UHGV virus genome: UHGV-0331195
Source: a virus
DNA length: 11,597 nucleotides
Direction: 5' to 3' (one strand)
Made by a program: the position numbers and the translations under genes. The notes below the pieces were generated by a model that worked only from the letters and a program-made list of their open reading frames with translations, made no database searches and was not told where the DNA came from. This document shows positions 3,046 to 11,313 of this stretch, piece by piece. Within the stretch, counting starts at the first letter, position 1; every line of letters starts with the position of its first letter.

Positions 3046-3603
3046 ATGGTTGCTGTAAATCATATACCACACCTTGTACACACACAAACGGCCTTTGTGT
3101 GGCGTTTTCTGGCCCTGAATATCGGAGAAAAAAACCGCTTGATCGCCACCAGCAAAAATGGCTATGATTCCCGCGCACCTCATAAAACGGGTGTCGGGAT
3201 TAGCCTCCTGAAAACAACTGAAGCGCACAGCACGCGCCCCGCGTGTTTTTTTGTGCCGCATAGTCACACCTTATCAATGGTGGGCTGTACGGGGGCGGAG
3301 CAATCCGCGCCGGTTTCTTCAGTGTCCGGTAAGGCTAACCCTGTACAGTCCGCCACCAGCGAAATTAGCCTTTTGCGTGGCGGTTATCTTAACCACACTG
3401 AGGAGGCTGCCAACATGGCTACTATCCCTACCCTTGTACATTCTCAAACCGCATTTATCTGGCGCTTTATCATCTTTGGCGCGTCAGAATCTCAAATCAT
3501 CCACGTAACCGCCTGGACGGAACGCGAAGCGCGTAGCCGTTGCCCGTCCGGTTGTATTGCGGTATTCGCCGCCCGTATTCGTCAGGGGGTGTGCCATGCC
3601 TGA
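3046..3603 (+). CDS. Icd-like (host cell-division inhibitor family) ORF with in-frame tandem duplication; start uncertain (2971, 3046 or 3415)
   Basis: Single frame 2971-3603 with no stop. AGGAG RBS before ATG 3046. N-terminal motif LVHTQTAFVWRF recurs as LVHSQTAFIWRF at the second copy; degenerate TEAHSTRPAC versus TEREARSRCP. Confidence 0.4.
   Translation: MVAVNHIPHLVHTQTAFVWRFLALNIGEKNRLIATSKNGYDSRAPHKTGVGISLLKTTEAHSTRPACFFVPHSHTLSMVGCTGAEQSAPVSSVSGKANPVQSATSEISLLRGGYLNHTEEAANMATIPTLVHSQTAFIWRFIIFGASESQIIHVTAWTEREARSRCPSGCIAVFAARIRQGVCHA
3415..3603 (+). CDS. Icd-like protein, second and better conserved copy, 62 aa
   Basis: Strong SD GAGGAGG (3400-3406) before ATG 3415. MATIPTLVHSQTAFIWRFIIFGAS...TEREARSRCP...FAARIRQGVCHA fits my recollection of Icd-like small proteins in P4-like/PICI elements. 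Confidence 0.5.
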   Translation: MATIPTLVHSQTAFIWRFIIFGASESQIIHVTAWTEREARSRCPSGCIAVFAARIRQGVCHA

Positions 3604-3922: not shown

Positions 3923-4222
3923 ATGAGAACGTATTTATCTGGCTTTACTGCCAGCGGCCCCGCTCGGCCTGAAATCCGCCCCGGAGATATTTTCAGAGAT
4001 AACTACGGTGGCGTTGTTGAGATTAAAGGCGTGGCAGAACGGCGCATTACCTACCGCCGTGAAGGCTACGAATATGATTGCGTGATGCCTGTTTATCAGT
4101 TCCGGCGTGATTTTTCTCTGGTACAGGCAGCGCCCCGCAGTAAACCAACCAGCAGGGAGAAAGCACGCGCCAATATTCAGGAAATAAGAAAGATGTTGAA
4201 TGTATTCAGGGGTAAAAAATGA
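3923..4222 (+). CDS. Small protein, possible DUF4222 family
   Basis: 99 aa; PGDIFRDNYGGVVEIKGVAERRITYRREGYEYDC resembles the DUF4222 pattern I recall from P4-like prophages. Stop overlaps the primase start (ATGA). Confidence 0.45.
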   Translation: MRTYLSGFTASGPARPEIRPGDIFRDNYGGVVEIKGVAERRITYRREGYEYDCVMPVYQFRRDFSLVQAAPRSKPTSREKARANIQEIRKMLNVFRGKK

Positions 4223-5967
4223 AACTGGCACCGAACGTAAAAAAACAGCCACGCGGAATAAAACACAAAGACACAGAGGTAATTATCTTTGCGGGTAGTG
4301 ATGCCTGGTCACACGCGGAACAATGGCAGGAGCAGGATGGCCCCGCATCCGGCGATAATGTGCCGCCTGTGTGGCTTGGGCCAAATCAGCTTGCCGAACT
4401 TGATGCACTGAAAATTGTTCCGGATGGAAAAAAACGCGTAAGGCTGTACCAGGCCGGAGAACTGGATTTGGTGGAGACCAAAAAGATTGGTCAGAAGCTG
4501 GCGGCGGCAGATATTCAGGACGCAAATTTTTACCCCGAAGGAATGCACGTCCAGAAGTGTGAAAACTGGCGGCGCTATCTGAATGCTGAGCGTGAAAATA
4601 TTGCCGCAGGGCTTACCATGCCGGAGCAGAAAAATACGCAACTGGCACAAATGGCAGACAGTGAGCGCGCGCAGCTGCTTGCCGAGCGCTTTGATGGCGT
4701 TTGTGTACATCCGGAAAGTGAAATCGTTCACGTATGGCGCGGCGGGGTATGGTGTCCGATCAGCACAATGGAGCTGAGCCGCGAAATGGTGGCGATCTAT
4801 TCAGAGCACAGGGCCACTTTCAGCAAACGCGTGATCAATAACGCCGTTGAAGCGTTAAAAGTTATTGCCGAACCAATGGGGGAGCCGTCCGGCGATTTGC
4901 TGCCGTTCGCCAATGGTGCGCTTGACCTGAAAACGGGGGAATTTTCCCCGCACACGCCGGAGAACTGGATCACCACGCACAACGGCATTGAGTACACGCC
5001 ACCAGCACCTGGGGAGAACATCCGCGATAACGCGCCAAACTTTCATAAATGGCTTGATCACGCAGCCGGAAAAGACCAGCGCAAGATGATGCGTATATGT
5101 GCCGCGCTGTACATGATTATGGCGAACCGGTACGACTGGCAGATGTTTATTGAGGCCACCGGAGACGGCGGGAGCGGTAAAAGTACATTCACACACATCG
5201 CCAGCCTTCTGGCAGGGAAACAGAACACGGTAAGCGCTGAAATGACATCGCTTGATGATGCTGGTGGACGTGCGCAGGTTGTCGGGAGTCGTCTTATCGT
5301 CCTGGCTGACCAGACGAAATATACAGGCGAAGGAACGGGCATCAAGAAAATCACGGGCGGCGACCCCGTGGAAATTAACCCGAAATACGAAAAGCGTTTC
5401 ACGGCTGTAATCAGGGCGGTGGTGCTGGCGACCAACAATAACCCGATGATATTCACCGAACGGGCCGGAGGTGTGGCACGTCGTCGCGTGATTTTCCGCT
5501 TCGACAATATCGTCAGTGAGGCCGAAAAAGACAGGGAGCTACCGGAAAAGATTGCGGCTGAAATCCCTGTCATTATCCGCCGATTGCTGGCGAACTTTAC
5601 CGACCCTGAGAAGGCACGGGCTTTACTACTGGAACAGCGTGACGGTGATGAAGCACTGGCAATAAAGCAACAGACGGATCCGGTTATTGAGTTTTGCCAG
5701 TTCCTGAATTTTCTGGAGGAAGCGCGCGGCCTGATGATGGGTGGCGGTGGCGATTCAGTGAAGTACACGACCAGAAACAGCCTTTACCGCGTCTATCTGG
5801 CGTTTATGGCATACGCAGGCAGGAGCAAACCGCTAAACGTAAATGACTTTGGCAAGGCTATGAAGCCAGCCGCGAAAGTTTACGGACATGAATATATTAC
5901 GCGGAAAGTTAAGGGAGTAACGCAGACTAACGCAATAACAACAGACGATTGCGACGCGTTTTTATAA
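4219..5967 (+). CDS. Replication protein: P4-alpha-like primase / SF3 helicase
   Basis: 582 aa; Walker A GDGGSGKST (aa 315-323, nt 5161-5187) and Walker B-like RLIVLAD, consistent with the phage/plasmid primase P4-family C-terminal domain. Followed by an iteron origin. Confidence 0.75.
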   Translation: MKLAPNVKKQPRGIKHKDTEVIIFAGSDAWSHAEQWQEQDGPASGDNVPPVWLGPNQLAELDALKIVPDGKKRVRLYQAGELDLVETKKIGQKLAAADIQDANFYPEGMHVQKCENWRRYLNAERENIAAGLTMPEQKNTQLAQMADSERAQLLAERFDGVCVHPESEIVHVWRGGVWCPISTMELSREMVAIYSEHRATFSKRVINNAVEALKVIAEPMGEPSGDLLPFANGALDLKTGEFSPHTPENWITTHNGIEYTPPAPGENIRDNAPNFHKWLDHAAGKDQRKMMRICAALYMIMANRYDWQMFIEATGDGGSGKSTFTHIASLLAGKQNTVSAEMTSLDDAGGRAQVVGSRLIVLADQTKYTGEGTGIKKITGGDPVEINPKYEKRFTAVIRAVVLATNNNPMIFTERAGGVARRRVIFRFDNIVSEAEKDRELPEKIAAEIPVIIRRLLANFTDPEKARALLLEQRDGDEALAIKQQTDPVIEFCQFLNFLEEARGLMMGGGGDSVKYTTRNSLYRVYLAFMAYAGRSKPLNVNDFGKAMKPAAKVYGHEYITRKVKGVTQTNAITTDDCDAFL

Positions 5968-5982
5968 TTTTTTGCAATGGCT

Positions 5983-6207
5983 GTCTACCCTGTCTACCTG
6001 AGTAAAGAAAAATACATTTAATTCAGTATATTAACTTAGGTAGACAGCCTTTTTTCACTGTCTACCTACTATCTACCCTCTCTACCTGATTTTACCTGAA
6101 TCAGACAGGGAGGTAGATACGGGGTAGATAGTGGATAAAAGCACTCTACCCCGCTGAAAGCCGCGCCATTACTGGCATGAGAGCCAGTAAGGTAGATAAG
6201 GTAGACA
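5983..6207. repeat. Origin of replication: iteron cluster with at least 12 copies of (T)GTCTACC / GGTAGA(C/T)A in both orientations around an AT-rich spacer (6001-6038)
   Basis: Direct copies at 5983-5990, 5991-5998, 6059-6066, 6071-6077, 6082-6088, 6144-6150; inverted copies at 6039-6046, 6113-6120, 6123-6130, 6191-6198, 6200-6207. Resembles P4 ori/crr octamer iterons bound by alpha. Confidence 0.7.
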
Positions 6208-6255
6208 AGGGGAGGCACAACTCAAAACTTTTTAAACGAGGGGGTAAAAATAAAA

Positions 6256-6809: not shown

Positions 6810-6821
6810 GTACCCAAAAAA

Positions 6822-6858
6822 AGCCCGATAAGTACAGGAGGCATCTTATCGGGCTTTT
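6822..6858. terminator. Second, bidirectional terminator (AGCCCGATAAG...CTTATCGGGCT flanked by A-run and T-run)
   Basis: 11-bp stem hairpin with A7 upstream and T4 downstream; insulates the early/replication region from the head operon. Confidence 0.6.
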
Positions 6859-6891: not shown

Positions 6892-6990
6892 ATGATCGGG
6901 ATCATCATTTCATAATTTGCAACACAACTCAACATCATTGCATAAAATGCAATCATGATTATAATCATAACTGGATGAACATCCAGTTAT
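6892..6990 (+). promoter_or_regulatory. Head-operon control region: consensus -10 TATAAT (6959-6964) with TTGCAT -35 candidate (6938-6943), plus four palindromes
   Basis: Palindromes ATGATC-GG-GATCAT (6892-6905), TTGCAT-AAA-ATGCAA (6938-6952), ATGATTATAATCAT (6955-6968), ATAACTGGATG-AA-CATCCAGTTAT (6967-6990); the last sits at the expected transcription start. Confidence 0.5.
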
Positions 6991-7021
6991 GATTTTTTAA
7001 GTCAAAGAGGAATTTCTTACT

Positions 7022-7228
7022 ATGGCTGAAGAGAAAAAAGGCGGTGTTTCGGTGTACATAAGCCCCGACATCGTGAAGGCGCTCAAGGAACGCCACCAGC
7101 AGAACGTAAAAGCAGGCATTGCGGCAGGACTTGATCCGCTGGCGATGGTTGAGCCGTCAACAGGCTGGCAGGTACGCGCCTATTTACGCGCGGCGCTGGG
7201 TATGAATCAGGTTCACGGGGGTGAATAA
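7022..7228 (+). CDS. Small hypothetical protein, first gene of head operon
   Basis: 68 aa, RBS AAGAGGAA, stop overlaps the capsid gene start (TAATG). No similarity to lambda gpW, which has the same length, that I can see. Confidence 0.5.
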   Translation: MAEEKKGGVSVYISPDIVKALKERHQQNVKAGIAAGLDPLAMVEPSTGWQVRAYLRAALGMNQVHGGE

Positions 7229-8283
7229 TGACAGTAAAAGCAATAGCACTTAACACTAACCAGCTTTTTGCGTACCTGAATCGCGAGGATATTGCGGAAT
7301 TTAAATTCAGTCCGCTGTTTACCGCGCTGTTTTTCCCGAACGTGGCGACATTCAACACACAGGACATCATGTTAGATAACCTGGATATTGAAGAAGTCAC
7401 TATGTCGGCGTTTTGTTCGCCTATGGTGGGTAGCCAGGTTCAGCGCGATAAAGGGTACGAAACAAGCATTATTCGCCCTGGCTACACGAAGCCAAAACAC
7501 GAAATCGATCCATTAAAAACAATAATGCGCATGGCTGGAGAAGATCCAGCACAGCTTAACGACCCTACCTACCGCCGTATGCGCCTGATTACTGGCAACA
7601 TGCGCCGCCAGATAAACGCCATTAAAGCGCGCGTGGAATGGCTGGCGGTAAATGCGGTAACGACCGGAAAAAACATCATTGAGGGCGAAGGCATAGAGCG
7701 CTATGAAATCGACTGGAAGATACCGGAAAAAAACATCATAGAGCAGGCCGACGGTAAAAAATGGTCAGAGCAGGACAAAGACATACACGACCCAATCTAT
7801 GACATTGAGCTATACGCAGATCAGGCAGGTTGCCCCGCAAACGTCATGATTATGGGCGTTGATGTATGGCGCATGTTACGCAGCTTTAAAAAATTCCGTG
7901 AACTGTACGATCTCTCCCGTGGTTCAGAATCCGCCGCAGAGCTGGCATGTAAAAACCTGGGCGAAGTGGTGAGCTTTAAAGGCTATCTTGGTGATCTGGC
8001 CCTTATCGTCTATTCCGGCAAATACACTGACAGCGACGGCACAGAAAAATATTTCCTTGAGCCTGATTTGCTGGTCCTGGGCAACACCAACAATAAAGGG
8101 CTGGTGGCCTATGGTGCGATTATGGAACAGGAAGCGGTAAGAACGGGCGCAACGCAAAACATGTTTTACCCGAAAAACTGGATTGAGGACGGCGATCCGG
8201 CGATTGAGTACGTGCAGACGCACAGCGCACCGCAGCCGGTTCCGGCAGATATTCGCAAATTTGTTACCGTCAAAATTGGTTAA
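7228..8283 (+). CDS. Major capsid protein, phage lambda gpE family (divergent)
   Basis: 351 aa. Shares with recalled lambda gpE: FKF(S/D)PLF...LFF, (T/R)PGY(V/T)KPKHE, EDP..L.DP.YRR.R.I..NMR, WS..DK...DP..DIE.YA, RSFK, RGS.S, LG..VS(F/Y)KG..GD.A.(I/V)VYSG.Y, LVLGNT...GL..YG, .YPKNW...GDPA.E, SAP. Estimated 35-45% identity. Confidence 0.85.
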   Translation: MTVKAIALNTNQLFAYLNREDIAEFKFSPLFTALFFPNVATFNTQDIMLDNLDIEEVTMSAFCSPMVGSQVQRDKGYETSIIRPGYTKPKHEIDPLKTIMRMAGEDPAQLNDPTYRRMRLITGNMRRQINAIKARVEWLAVNAVTTGKNIIEGEGIERYEIDWKIPEKNIIEQADGKKWSEQDKDIHDPIYDIELYADQAGCPANVMIMGVDVWRMLRSFKKFRELYDLSRGSESAAELACKNLGEVVSFKGYLGDLALIVYSGKYTDSDGTEKYFLEPDLLVLGNTNNKGLVAYGAIMEQEAVRTGATQNMFYPKNWIEDGDPAIEYVQTHSAPQPVPADIRKFVTVKIG

Positions 8284-8295
8284 CGGGGGGATTCT

Positions 8296-8631
8296 ATGGA
8301 CACTCCATACATTGAGTTATTTGCAGGCAGTCAGCAGGTATCCACGACGCTGGTACATTTTGCCGCTGATGCTGGCGTTATTCAGGAATTTACCCCGCTG
8401 ATGCTGGCGGACAATGGCGAGTTTAAGCCGTGGGATGGTCAGGAATCTGGCAAGGCTGTTTATCTGACTTCGTACCCCGTGGACACGTCAAAGCAGAAAT
8501 CAGCACAGTGTTACAAGACGGGGATATTTAATATCGCCGCCGTAAACTGGCCTGAGAGCGCCGACACTGACGCGAAAAAATGCGCCGCCTTTGCGGGTTC
8601 TGGCGTATCCGTTCAGCCGCTGGCGCGATAA
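8296..8631 (+). CDS. Head decoration protein, lambda gpD family (divergent)
   Basis: 111 aa; TPLMLADNGEFKPWDG...YKTGIFN...VNWPESADTDAKKCAAFAG...SV parallels recalled gpD (TPLMLD...WDG...YKSGTF...VLWPEA..DETKKRTAFAG...SI). Gene order E then D is the reverse of lambda. Confidence 0.7.
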   Translation: MDTPYIELFAGSQQVSTTLVHFAADAGVIQEFTPLMLADNGEFKPWDGQESGKAVYLTSYPVDTSKQKSAQCYKTGIFNIAAVNWPESADTDAKKCAAFAGSGVSVQPLAR

Positions 8632-9086: not shown

Positions 9087-9088
9087 AC

Positions 9089-9262
9089 GGGTCCTTTCCG
9101 GCATATGGACCCGTTACGGGGCGGCGACCTCGCGGTTTTTCGCTATTTATGAGCCTTTTCAGGGGGGTGGTGGTGGTTTTGTTGTTTGATCTATCTTTAT
9201 GAATGAAAAGGGAAAGATGCAAGCAATACACCAACCTGAAGCAGTAATTAAGTTGGTGTATT
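9089..9262 (+). other. cos site 1 (lambda-type): cosQ-like GGGTCCTTTCCGG (9089-9101), cosN 12-nt cohesive-end sequence GGGCGGCGACCT (9119-9130), divergent cosB region with hairpin AATACACCAAC/GTTGGTGTATT (9225-9262)
   Basis: CGTTACG|GGGCGGCGACCTCGCGG-TTTTCGCTATTTATGA matches my memory of the lambda right-end/left-end junction for about 35 nt, then diverges with no CGTTTCC-type R elements. Sits directly upstream of the Nu1-like gene, as in lambda. Confidence 0.75.
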
Positions 9263-9263
9263 A

Positions 9264-9806
9264 ATGAAATCTCATCTGATGAACAAAAAAAACATGGCGA
9301 AAAGCTGCCGTGTAAGTGCGACAGCGTTCGACAAGTGGGGAGTAACTCCCGTTGAGCGTAAAGGCCGTGAGGCGTTTTATGATGTTGCCAGCGTGATAGA
9401 AAATAGGGTTAACAATGCAATTAGCCAGCTTATAAACGACAAAGGCGAGATTGACGATGATGAACTTTTACGAGTCAGGATCAGATTACTGACAGCACAG
9501 GCAGAGGCGCAGGAACTTAAAAACGATCGCGATCGCGGTGACGTGATTGATACTGAGTTTTGCCTGTACGCGCTTTCAAAGCTGGCGAGTCAGATTTCAT
9601 CAATCATGGACAGCCTCCCGCTTACTATGCAAAGGAGCTTCCCACAGATTACCCCCGCCATGCTGGATAGGCTTAAAAGGGAAGTGGTTAAAGCCTGTAA
9701 TGCCAGTGCCAGAGTTGCCGACAACCTCCCACAGATACTGGCTGATTACTTGAAAGAAACAACCGGAAACGTACCGGAAAAGTTGCTACAGAAGAAAGGC
9801 GAGTAA
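9264..9806 (+). CDS. Terminase small subunit, lambda gpNu1 family; start uncertain (9264, 9279 or 9294)
   Basis: C-terminal two-thirds LLTAQAEAQELKNDRDRGDVIDTEFCLYALSKLASQISSIMDSLPLTMQRSFPQI...LDRLKREVVKACN closely parallels recalled Nu1 (LTRAQADAQELKNARDSAEVVETAFCTFVLSRIAGEIASILDGLPLSVQRRFPEL...FLKRDIIKAMN). N-terminal DNA-binding region is much more divergent. Confidence 0.8.
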   Translation: MKSHLMNKKNMAKSCRVSATAFDKWGVTPVERKGREAFYDVASVIENRVNNAISQLINDKGEIDDDELLRVRIRLLTAQAEAQELKNDRDRGDVIDTEFCLYALSKLASQISSIMDSLPLTMQRSFPQITPAMLDRLKREVVKACNASARVADNLPQILADYLKETTGNVPEKLLQKKGE

Positions 9807-9824: not shown

Positions 9825-10030
9825 ACAAAACTGAGAAACGACATGAAAGCGTCATAAATCGCCATTTTAGATGATTACCGTGTCGTTTCTTTTTATTGTG
9901 TATCTATTTAAAAACAAATAGTTATGTTCGAGAAGTACCGACATGCTTTTTCCAGAAAAATTTTCATAAACAGATAAAAACCGCGAGGTCGCCGCCCCGT
10001 AACGGGCCATAATTCCAGGAAGGACCCGAC
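9825..10030 (-). other. cos site 2, inverted: cosQ-like (9998-10030), cosN GGGCGGCGACCT on minus strand (9986-9997), lambda-like cosB with R-type elements GAAACGACA (9835-9843) / TGTCGTTTC (9882-9890)
   Basis: The reverse complement of 9825-10030 aligns with the recalled lambda left end over about 170 nt (cosN, TTTATGAAAATTTT, CTTCT.G.ACATAACT..TGTTTTTA..TA, AAAAAGAAACGACA, TGTCGTTTC). 31 nt around cosN are identical to cos site 1 in inverted orientation. cosB abuts the terS stop tail-to-tail. Confidence 0.7.
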
Positions 10031-10061
10031 GACACCAGACTATCAGAACGATGGGGGCACA

Positions 10062-10343
10062 ATGACAGAAGCCGAAATACTGGGATTAATCCGCCGCGTT
10101 GCCGGAATCAGCCAGCAGGTTGACGAACAGGCCACGCAGCCGGACAGCGTGACCGCTGAAAATTATGCGCGTGTTGTTGCGGAGGTGATGCGCCGTGATG
10201 GTATAGAACTTAATGGCGTGGATATGCGCAACATACGAACCAGAGTTCTTGAGTTGCTGGCCTACCGTCGCCGCGTGGAGATGTATCGGGAGAAGGAGAA
10301 AATAACGTACCACTGGAAGAAGCCGGAGCGGTTGCGGCGGTAA
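10062..10343 (+). CDS. Hypothetical protein, 93 aa
   Basis: ORF with GGGGG 5 nt upstream of ATG; Arg-rich C-terminus. No family recognised. Confidence 0.45.
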   Translation: MTEAEILGLIRRVAGISQQVDEQATQPDSVTAENYARVVAEVMRRDGIELNGVDMRNIRTRVLELLAYRRRVEMYREKEKITYHWKKPERLRR

Positions 10344-10903
10344 CTGGTTGATATTCCCGACGGACCAAAAATGGGTGGCTACATCCCTCGCTTCTGAGGA
10401 CTGTTAACAAGCTGCCTGAAAGACAGTCACAAACTACGAAATTTTCGCAGTTTAATTAATGATCAGCTTAATCGCTAACCCGCTGATATTTTCGGAAACC
10501 TCAATTTGAGGAAGTCGGCGCGGTAACTCGCTGAACTTTAAGCAAAGCGCAAAATTGCGCTTGCTGAATAATCATTATGATTACGCAGATGATTAAGGAA
10601 TGACCGAAGGCGGAAATTCGCCTGTGGTTAATGGGGGAGTTGCAGATCTGCAACTCGACCATGAAACTACGGAAACTACCCGTAGTTTGGGTAGTAAGAG
10701 TAACACCCAGATTTTGGGGCTTACTCGTGATACCCAAATTTGGGGTATCGGTGGCAACCATAACGACTTTCGTTACGGTTGATGCTTTTACCCCATTGGT
10801 GGAGGCTGGGCGGCCTGCTGTGGGCTTTTCCACCATTGGTGGAAAGGTGCAGATCTGGATCATCATTACGGTGATCAAGGGTATGTAAAACCCACCAGCC
10901 TGA

Positions 10904-11146
10904 TTAACAGTTAACCGGAAAAAAAATCCGGCATGGGGGGGAGTGGTTAGCCACGAACAACGAATAAGCTGGACACCGCGCCCCCTCTCACGCAGAGAAA
11001 AAATTACCGTTTCGTAGTAGTTAACATGTTAACTGCCTGATGAAGCGTTGTTGTTGATTTTTTCTTTATGATTCATCTGGTTGCGTGCAAAAAATGTTAA
11101 CTACCTTTTTGGTAAAAATGTTAACAGGGCAGCGGTTAACATTAAC
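10904..11146. repeat. Cluster of GTTAAC-containing palindromes and direct repeats: TTAACAGTTAAC (10904-10915), AGTTAACATGTTAACT (11019-11034), AAAATGTTAAC x2 (11091-11102, 11114-11125), GGTTAA-CA-TTAACC (11133-11146)
   Basis: Seen in sequence. No ORF of convincing quality in this region. Candidate protein-binding array, function unknown. Confidence 0.4.
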
Positions 11147-11290
11147 CAGGCGTAAATCCCGATATGGTGATCCCCATATCGGGGAACATCCACCAGCTTA
11201 AAAACGAATGAGCGAAAAAAATCCAGGTAGAATTATGGAAGTCGCTAGGGCAATCGCCGTTTAAATTGTGTATTTTTTCAGCAAATTATT

Positions 11291-11313
11291 TTAGTTATAC
11301 GTTTGGTTATACG
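11291..11313. repeat. Integrase arm-type sites near attR: TTAGTTATACG (11291-11301) and TTGGTTATACG (11303-11313)
   Basis: Same 11-mer as at 262-284, about 60 bp from the attR core. Confidence 0.55.

Follow-up and report, generated by a model that had tools for sequence, protein, structure and literature searches.

What could occupy the DNA between the last gene of a phage satellite and its attachment site when no gene can be recognized there? The question was raised by a stretch of 11,597 nucleotides from the viral genome UHGV-0331195 (the whole of which is referred to here as the window) and, specifically, by its positions 10344 to 11290. Judging from its sequence, the whole window is a satellite of Escherichia coli beside a tRNA-Pro gene, that is, a phage-inducible chromosomal island (PICI) of the EcCICFT073 type. 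Since the gene set of the island, including homologs of a capsid and a decoration protein, matches that of PICI EcCICFT073 (PMC6092414), the region can be defined as the satellite's tail, the non-coding 3' stretch going from the last gene of the late operon (denoted here p93) to attR. The original prediction had described it as a segment poor in open reading frames (ORFs) and dense in palindromes and short repeats, and had left three candidates: a structured noncoding RNA, a protein-binding array for recombination or packaging, or a degraded cargo region. The analysis reported here leads to a composite picture, which we hold to be probable with moderate confidence: a satellite tail made of a captured cos region of HNH-dependent lambdoid phages of the Shiga toxin (Stx) type, Chi sites, an arm of attP and duplicated modules with dyad symmetry.

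The GTTAAC cluster as a copy of phage cos DNA

The key finding derives from the cluster of GTTAAC motifs noticed in the original prediction, which proved to be real: the window contains nine copies of the hexamer (2.8 expected), of which seven fall within the region, five of them at 11020-11140. The cluster belongs to a 225-bp cassette (10932-11156, plus strand), named here cos3, which its homology identifies as copied cos DNA of HNH-dependent lambdoid phages, helpers unrelated to the lambda-type ones. The segment 10969-11143 matched 94 phage records with about 80% identity over 172-175 bp, among them BP-4795, YYZ-2008, phage 2851 and many Stx1a, Stx2a and Stx2c prophages, and the matches always fell in unannotated DNA. 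In BP-4795, the homologous DNA is found between the gene for an HNH endonuclease and that for the small terminase subunit (TerS, here of the Terminase_2 family), followed by the gene for the large subunit (TerL). When a conserved 25-mer was used to retrieve 109 loci from IMG/VR, the core was flanked by HNH and/or terS, in the same orientation, in 105 of them (by both genes in 90), the remaining four being satellites; in the phage loci the HNH gene ends about 63 bp upstream of the core and the Terminase_2 terS starts about 231 bp downstream.

Briefly, cos3 consists of a G-run (10934-10940), a stretch made of a conserved G/C-rich core and a following A-tract (GGACACCGCGCCCCCTCTCACGCAGAGAAAAAATTACCGTTTC, 10969-11013), presumed to be the cleavage site and the proximal TerS site, and five ATGTTAAC units, presumed to act as cosB-like TerS sites, at 11019-11034 (an inverted pair), 11094-11101, 11118-11125 and 11135-11142 (inverted). 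Over its whole length the cassette is about 74% identical to the phage copies, so that two groups about 26% apart can be distinguished, with at least 93% identity among the phage copies and at least 98% among the satellite ones. The differences are unevenly distributed. No position of the core (10969-11013) or of the five ATGTTAAC units departs from the phage consensus, the repeats showing no mismatch in 40 positions, where about 10 would be expected, and the 43 mismatches at columns conserved in the phages all fall either in the spacers or upstream of the core. From this homology and genomic context we infer a packaging site that would be cleaved at the core and used by helpers of the HNH class. 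It has been reported that HK97-type cos adjoins the HNH and terS genes, and that its TerS reads a G plus A-tract element 15-29 bp from the cut, after a G/C-rich core (PMC9410871, PMC11331095); the conserved block GGACACCGCGCCCCCTCTCACGCAGAGAAAAAATT of cos3 has the same G/C-rich-then-A-tract form, a parallel to be taken as an analogy. The layout also resembles that of lambda cos (cosQ-cosN-cosB, with R3, I1, R2 and R1), in that a cleavage-type core is followed by short repeats in both orientations, between which an A/T-rich spacer is found, with terS located downstream in the phages; no sequence similarity to cos3 was shown by either lambda or HK97 cos.

Two further cos sites, missing from the original prediction, lie just upstream of the region. 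The first, cos1 (9088-9150, plus strand), is located upstream of the Nu1-like terS and presents a cosQ-like element, an exact cosN (GGGCGGCGACCT, 9119-9130) and an I2-like element. The second, cos2 (9960-10035, minus strand; cosN at 9986-9997), is an inverted copy between terS and p93. Base 1 of the lambda genome records aligns exactly to position 9119, and the homology to lambda at cos1 spans cosQ, cosN and I2 and stops before cosB. Two cos sites answering the same description are known in EcCICFT073 (PMC6739421, PMC6092414). As cos1 and cos2 are already present, cos3 is a third cos, of another packaging class. An identity of the island's TerS as an Rpp protein was considered and rejected, as no match to RppC was found in the PDB.

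A model can be proposed in which excision and replication from an iteron origin (5976-6210) would generate concatemers ready for packaging. The ATGTTAAC repeats and the A-tract would be loaded with the small subunit (Terminase_2) of a helper of the HNH class, TerL and HNH would cut the adjacent G/C-rich core, and the island would be packaged rightwards, through attP and int. In this model, the two lambda-type cos sites on either side of the island's own Nu1-like terS would serve the first class of helper, and cos3 would add a second one, so that the island could probably be packaged by phages of another kind.

A portable cassette among satellites

Most related tails lack the cassette, and in them a short block denoted M3 (ending in CCGGAAAAAAAATCCGG) abuts the dyad CCCGATATGG..CCATATCGGG, found in the window at 11158-11183, whereas here 225 bp separate them; cos3 is therefore a clean presence/absence difference between these two landmarks. 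The satellite-specific junction of M3 with cos3 was found in 50 of 5426 complete E. coli genomes (about 1%). When the query was 10880-11030, comprising M3 and the cos3 core, more than 1100 of the 5426 genomes matched, with 90-95% identity, and we take most of these matches to be prophage cos cores. The carriers sampled comprise PICIs of the lambda type, integrated at proL and at a tRNA-Ile site, a capsid-forming PICI (cf-PICI) at clpS and a satellite of the ClpP-MCP type (MCP, major capsid protein), also at clpS; the identity of the cassette does not fall below 97.7% across these three architectures and three att sites. In L200, the ClpP-MCP satellite of 9.9 kb (related loci are numbered here with this prefix), cos3 is the only recognizable cos, and lambda cosN is absent even at two mismatches. 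The cf-PICI (L204; NZ_CP044314.1, 3688354-3695504) encodes its own HNH, a P27-family TerS and TerL, and its tail carries cos3 as well, which was unexpected for an element thought to package only via its own machinery.

The distribution of the cassette can also be explained by assuming that cos3 is a non-functional relic of a single recombination between a prophage and a satellite tail, which then spread passively, with packaging taking place only via the lambda-type cos sites. We consider this possible, if rather unlikely. It would account for the presence of the cassette in only about 1% of the genomes, for its being shared by tails that freely recombine across architectures, a cf-PICI endowed with a terminase of its own among them, and for the different family of the island's TerS, and the 98-100% identity of the satellite copies is compatible with recent spread rather than with long selection. 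Against it stand the concentration of the divergence in the spacers, the core and the five ATGTTAAC units being intact, and the existence of a whole family (L200 and the satellites of the E. coli 042 type) that has no other recognizable cos.

Several observations do weigh against the composite picture given at the outset. The presence of cos3 in a cf-PICI with its own packaging genes fits hitch-hiking by tail recombination as well as function. The island's Nu1-type TerS is unrelated to that of BP-4795, and the cognate TerS, TerL and HNH are not encoded beside cos3, whose flanks are tail modules and attR; therefore, its use would require that a helper provide all these proteins. Phage records starting at the cos3 core, which were sought to map the cut, were not found, and the same approach did locate the lambda-type cos1. 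As the satellite copies are only about 74% identical to the sampled phage copies, the cognate helper is not pinpointed. The capsid gene of BP-4795 is not similar to its counterpart in the cos3-only satellite, so that there is no independent link to this helper class, and an attempt to connect cos3 with its helpers via capsid homology was given up; the best phage relative of the ClpP-MCP protein belongs to a different Stx2 phage, with 51% identity. In addition, some 540 bp of the tail (10344-10880) have no assigned factor, and the relatives compared below for the polarity of their Chi sites are not independent samples, the role given to these sites being derived from orientation only.

Satellites carrying a helper cos are already known (PMC6092414, PMC6739421). 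By its satellite context, with an integrase, an AlpA-type regulator, a primase with its origin and att repeats, and by its match to the cos of potential helpers common in the host species, cos3 is, on sequence grounds, of this known kind; what is new here is a third, HNH-class cos on a portable tail cassette. EcCICFT073 (Fillol-Salom et al. 2018, 2019; PMC6092414, PMC6739421) belongs to the same family, with homologs of the capsid protein E and the decoration protein D, two lambda-type cosN and helper-like cos DNA for the helper terminase. Unlike its cos1 and cos2, the cos3 described here is a third site, of the HNH and Terminase_2 class, which lies in the 3' tail beside attR and preserves the repeat array of the helper, without a replacement of cosB. 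The island also differs in encoding a full-length Nu1-like TerS (180 residues) at the place occupied by RppA in EcCICFT073. The cos-carrying Staphylococcus aureus pathogenicity islands (SaPIs) of the SaPIbov5 type (Quiles-Puchalt et al. 2014), as they are presented in the works citing them (PMC6092414, bioRxiv 10.1101/2022.09.08.507074), likewise bear a copy of the cos of an HNH-dependent helper and rely wholly on the TerS, TerL and HNH of that helper. In the same account, the host of SaPIbov5 is Gram-positive and its cos is the main site, while the copy described here, with which it shares no sequence, is added to lambda-type sites and moves between architectures.

PICIs move virulence and defense genes, and their spread is limited by which helpers can package them. 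If our interpretation of cos3 is right, an island with the cos of two unrelated terminase systems would have a helper range wider than its gene content suggests, the candidate helpers would include Shiga-toxin prophages, and the M3-cos3 junction, present in about 1% of complete E. coli genomes, would be a simple marker for satellite-helper pairs. More tentatively, the tails of PICIs and cf-PICIs might be conceived as exchangeable "helper-range" modules, in which a portable cos would allow satellites that use lambda helpers or their own capsids to exploit HNH-dependent Stx-type phages, Chi sites would face the cos-made ends and the dyads would be operators for a common factor, possibly p93.

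Palindromic modules upstream of cos3

The density of palindromes claimed in the original prediction was confirmed. When perfect inverted repeats with stems of 6 or more and loops of up to 9 nt were counted, the region was found to contain 15, against 2.35 ± 1.52 expected from 500 dinucleotide shuffles, none of which reached 15; those with stems of at least 8 number seven (0.14 expected, and again no shuffle as high). Direct reading of the sequence also reproduced the listed motifs, with the exception of one copy. Thus, of the two copies reported for GCAGATCTGCA, the first (10641-10652) is correct and the second (10848-10858) reads TGCAGATCTGG and is an imperfect one.

The tail was found to be built of short modules in varying combinations. 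The first three, a (10344-10472), b (10473-10520) and c (10521-10598), are tandem allelic copies of the segment that comes right after the p93 stop codon in other satellites, and this duplication underlies a family of direct repeats (D1/D2). Each copy opens with a stop-codon box, CGNTAAC..TGAW (10338-10355, 10473-10490 and 10521-10538), and in relatives the p93 stop leads directly into module b (L004, L069) or into module c (L016, L022, L025, L029, L030, L035). The block contains the dyads CCTCAATTTGAGG (10499-10511), AAGCGCAAAATTGCGCTT (10545-10562) and TAATCATTATGATTA (10569-10583). The latter (AATCATTATGATT) is replaced in other tails by the alleles GGTCATAATGACC and GGTGATAATCACC within the same flanks, CTGAAT..ACGCAG, all three versions being perfectly symmetric. 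Together with the allelic variation of other tail dyads described below, this symmetry suggests that selection acts on the dyads as protein sites on DNA rather than as RNA.

Module M1 (10632-10754) comprises a perfect 20-bp palindrome, GAGTTGCAGATCTGCAACTC (10637-10656), centered on TGCAGATCTGCA (10641-10652), an array of AAACTAC / GTAGTTT units with a 9-nt period (10664-10695) that includes the hairpin AAACTACGG..CCGTAGTTT (10664-10688), the near-tandem ACCCAGATTTTGGGG and ACCCAAATTTGGGG (10705-10745) and the dyad GATACC-N9-GGTATC (10729-10749). It behaves as an independent module of 123 bp, satellite-specific and non-coding, which many E. coli genomes contain and which accompanies four different replicons in satellites. 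Its variants keep the dyads (as in the change from GCAGATCTGC to GCAAATTTGC), and the AAACTAC array gains or loses whole 9-nt units; our best guess is that M1 is a set of protein-binding DNA sites. The element TAACGA-CTT-TCGTTA (10760-10775) lies between M1 and M2. Module M2 (10784-10880) is formed by two tandem alleles of one segment, with a direct repeat, GCTTTTNCCNCATTGGTGGA, at 10784-10803 and 10824-10843 (D4), the 19-bp palindrome TTTCCACCATTGGTGGAAA (10827-10845), within which CCACCATTGGTGG is found (10830-10842), and a GATC-rich stretch (10852-10876), the inverted repeats I5/I7 being part of the evidence for this structure. In relatives, either a "TTTTACCCCATTGGGGGAAAGGTATTACG.." or a "CCACCATTGGTGGAAAAGGTGCACATCTGG.." allele precedes the same Chi-containing block, and the M2 of the window is made of the head of the former plus the whole of the latter. 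This block, M3 (10885-10931, minus strand), contains a minus-strand Chi (CCACCAGC on the plus strand, 10892-10899), then CTGATTAACAGTTAACCGGAAAAAAAATCCGG. It is the most widely conserved of the tail, being present in nearly all of 49 distinct tails, with its Chi always on the minus strand.

The combination of p93 and a tail closes satellites of three architectures, namely the lambda E/D/Nu1 or Rpp type, the ClpP-MCP type and the cf-PICIs. Minimal tails have only about 300 bp, and the 947 bp found here can therefore be considered the product of accretion by recombination between satellites. The proposal of a degraded cargo is not sustained if dead genes are meant, and it half holds in spirit, the tail having accumulated duplicated allelic modules in this way. 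The palindromes of 10344-10880 would then be duplicated allelic, dyad-symmetric DNA sites for a protein, and neither genes nor RNAs. Searches based on sequence, structure and annotation for a role of p93 as the dyad binder led nowhere, and resemblances to a Fur box and to sites for integration host factor (IHF), noted by eye, were dropped since the allelic variants lose them. In the papers on PICIs, cf-PICIs and helper-embedded PICIs, this tail is not described. A helper-embedded satellite (L196; NZ_CP145668.1, 1724108-1734245), located inside the major capsid gene of a lambda-like prophage, has a tail with a divergent M1 followed by a gene of an abortive-infection family on the opposite strand, which indicates that the tail can hold defense cargo.

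The notion of a structured RNA, which would occupy about 10590-10900 (possibly more) as a noncoding RNA or 3' untranslated region (UTR) serving immunity, helper interference or mRNA stabilization, found little support, and we regard it as quite unlikely. The plus strand does have a very low folding energy (z = -9.2) and displays a chain of at least seven adjacent stem-loops, and its location directly 3' of the late operon makes its transcription as a 3' UTR probable. However, the minus strand folds equally well (z = -9.6), as is the case for DNA palindromes, which fold alike on both strands, and the loops of 9 of the 15 inverted repeats have 0-2 nt and are therefore too short for RNA hairpins. 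Neither of the two analyses that had been suggested together with this candidate was favorable to it: Rfam scans gave no match in the region at E ≤ 1 (whole window) or E ≤ 10 (region), and RNAalifold on M1, the best-sampled module, returned a covariation term of +2.03 (positive values being penalizing), with 1 of 42 pairs compensated. On these two grounds, a known RNA was rejected. In addition, promoter-like and terminator-like sites in the region show no excess, and in L196 the stems of the H4 hairpin are disrupted by changes that are not compensated.

As regards coding capacity, it had been claimed that only mutually overlapping ORFs occur in the region, and this is the case: the three ORFs (60, 85 and 125 codons) match nothing in Pfam or PHROG. 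Across nine variants of 10628-10760, the variable sites in the three ORFs were distributed over the three codon positions as 12/7/11, 7/11/12 and 11/7/12, that is, with no third-position bias. The frames are interrupted in L005, L196 and L198, and the minus-strand ORFs of different tails are unrelated to one another. A protein-coding gene was thus rejected for lack of a family match, of codon-position bias and of frame conservation, as was a type I toxin (the MKLRKLPVVW.. frame), which is shortened to 13 residues in L196. In a few genomes, RefSeq annotates a "hypothetical protein" of 52 residues (WP_001364204.1 and relatives) over the DNA corresponding to 10624-10782, a segment homologous to L003 6281-6439; the comparisons above indicate that this ORF is not a gene.

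Chi sites, the attachment end and the rest of the island

Chi, the crossover hotspot instigator of E. coli (GCTGGTGG), is found twice in the tail as an exact octamer, in the same orientation, a fact missing from the original prediction. In addition to that of M3, a second minus-strand copy (11190-11197) is included in the repeat AACATCCACCAGC (D18; compare AAAACCCACCAGC at 10887-10899), and it is kept after the 11158 dyad in tail types W and X. The whole window contains 11 exact Chi in 11.6 kb, against 0.34 expected from shuffles, a density far above that anticipated from base composition, and no other octamer is as common in the island. The sites start at 1510, 2424, 5260, 6592 and 8100 on the plus strand and at 3146, 3353, 4999, 7093, 10892 and 11190 on the minus strand. 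Similarly, L200 has 10 Chi in 9.9 kb, and the density is 0.54 per kb in satellite loci versus 0.26 per kb in sampled prophage loci.

The orientation of Chi flips around the cos sites, in such a way that the nearest one on each side faces the cos-made end. A comparison of 48 lambda-type relatives placed the first Chi encountered leftwards of cos1 on the plus strand and that of the tails almost always on the minus strand. These are the orientations that RecBCD recognizes on entering at cos-made ends, which points to a relevance of RecBCD here; the polarity pattern is to be taken as a lead only. Within the model proposed above, the minus-strand Chi at 10892 and 11190, facing the ends made at cos2, might limit degradation by RecBCD and promote the shuffling of tail cassettes by recombination. 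Such a strong enrichment suggests that satellites lacking a Gam-like inhibitor are under selection by RecBCD.

Downstream of cos3, the 26-bp near-perfect dyad at 11158-11183 (CCCGATATGGTGATCCCCATATCGGG), centered on GATC, is the last block common to satellites with different integrases. Its alleles GGGGATCCCC, GGTGATCACC and GGTGATCCCC differ by compensating changes at the center, and the distance from its homologs in L003 and L004 to the flanking chromosomal gene is likewise no more than a few hundred bp; the dyad is possibly a site for a co-factor of excision or integration. The region ends at attR, as had been predicted: the 16-bp core TTTTAGTTATACGTTT (11289-11304, plus strand) is an exact repeat of 260-275 (attL), and core-type repeats, GTTATACG, are found in direct and inverted orientation around both att cores. 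The attL core lies about 120 bp downstream of tRNA-Pro, not inside it. The last 100 bp or so of the region, and only these, have the features of an attP/attR end and are probably the attP arm (presumed P arm at 11198-11288, plus strand), a function attributed by analogy with the architecture of lambda attP. The second candidate of the original prediction, a protein-binding array for recombination or packaging, holds for the GTTAAC cluster as a copy of phage cos, and is plausible for the last 140 bp or so as the attP arm.

It could be argued that the whole tail, GTTAAC cluster included, is an extended P arm with regulatory sites, bound by an intasome of integrase (Int), an AlpA-type excision factor, IHF and Fis. 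In lambda, the att arm distal to int does carry the Int arm, Xis and IHF sites, and the 11158-11183 dyad is near the island end in the window as well as in L003 and L004, as defined by the flanking chromosomal genes. We nevertheless judge such an extension improbable: the modules are common to satellites that differ in their integrase and in their att site (proL, tRNA-Ile, clpS, tqsA, thiM and a prophage capsid gene), the GTTAAC cluster is homologous to phage DNA located beside terminase genes and not beside att, and minimal tails have only about 300 bp. The idea of a second replication element (iterons resembling a cis replication region, or an origin) for the P4-alpha-type primase, to which P4 lends a precedent with its distant cis replication region and to which the CTACC shared by the 9-nt periodic AAACTACC / GGGTAGT units and the origin iteron TGTCTACC could give some appeal, is effectively refuted by the iteron comparison, as M1 is common to satellites with different initiators and unrelated iterons (CTGTTCACC, ATAACCCGC, AAAGTGGG; four iteron types), and TCTACC or its complement, found 11 times at 5984-6200, has a single occurrence in the tail (11226) and another in the chromosomal flank (11533).

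The tail closes an island whose gene set matches that of EcCICFT073. The island starts after tRNA-Pro(GGG) (63-139) with the integrase gene (330-1589), and a near-identical island is found in E. coli DETEC-S792, between yejM/tRNA-Pro and yejO/narP. Rfam identifies, well above gathering scores, isrK-like and C4 (P4 CI-type) antisense RNAs at 3175-3360, the C4 match terminating in a Chi octamer (3353-3360). The gene for the P4-alpha-type primase (4219-5967) is directly followed by the replication origin (5976-6210), with at least 11 iterons, TGTCTACC / GGTAGACA, in two opposed sets; at this position, related satellites have P4-like CTGTTCACC or unrelated iterons. The genes for a lambda gpE-like capsid protein (7228-8283), a gpD-like decoration protein (8296-8631) and the small terminase subunit (9264-9806), with a Pfam Nu1 match, precede p93 (10062-10343). 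The latter encodes a protein of 93 residues assigned to phrog_1561, a PHROG without assigned function, whose homologs are all annotated as "hypothetical". A sequence search of the PDB gave no match for it, and its AlphaFold model, with three helices and a predicted local distance difference test (pLDDT) score of 70.6, had no Foldseek match in the PDB below E = 2.5. A scan of genome contigs with p93 led to a single locus. Lastly, between the primase and capsid genes lies that for PerC, and the PerC-capsid intergenic DNA contains two hairpins that make it a second palindrome hot spot of the window, one at 6819-6858, with a perfect 14-bp stem, a 12-nt loop and T-runs on both flanks, and another at 6963-6994, with a perfect 15-bp stem and a 2-nt loop.

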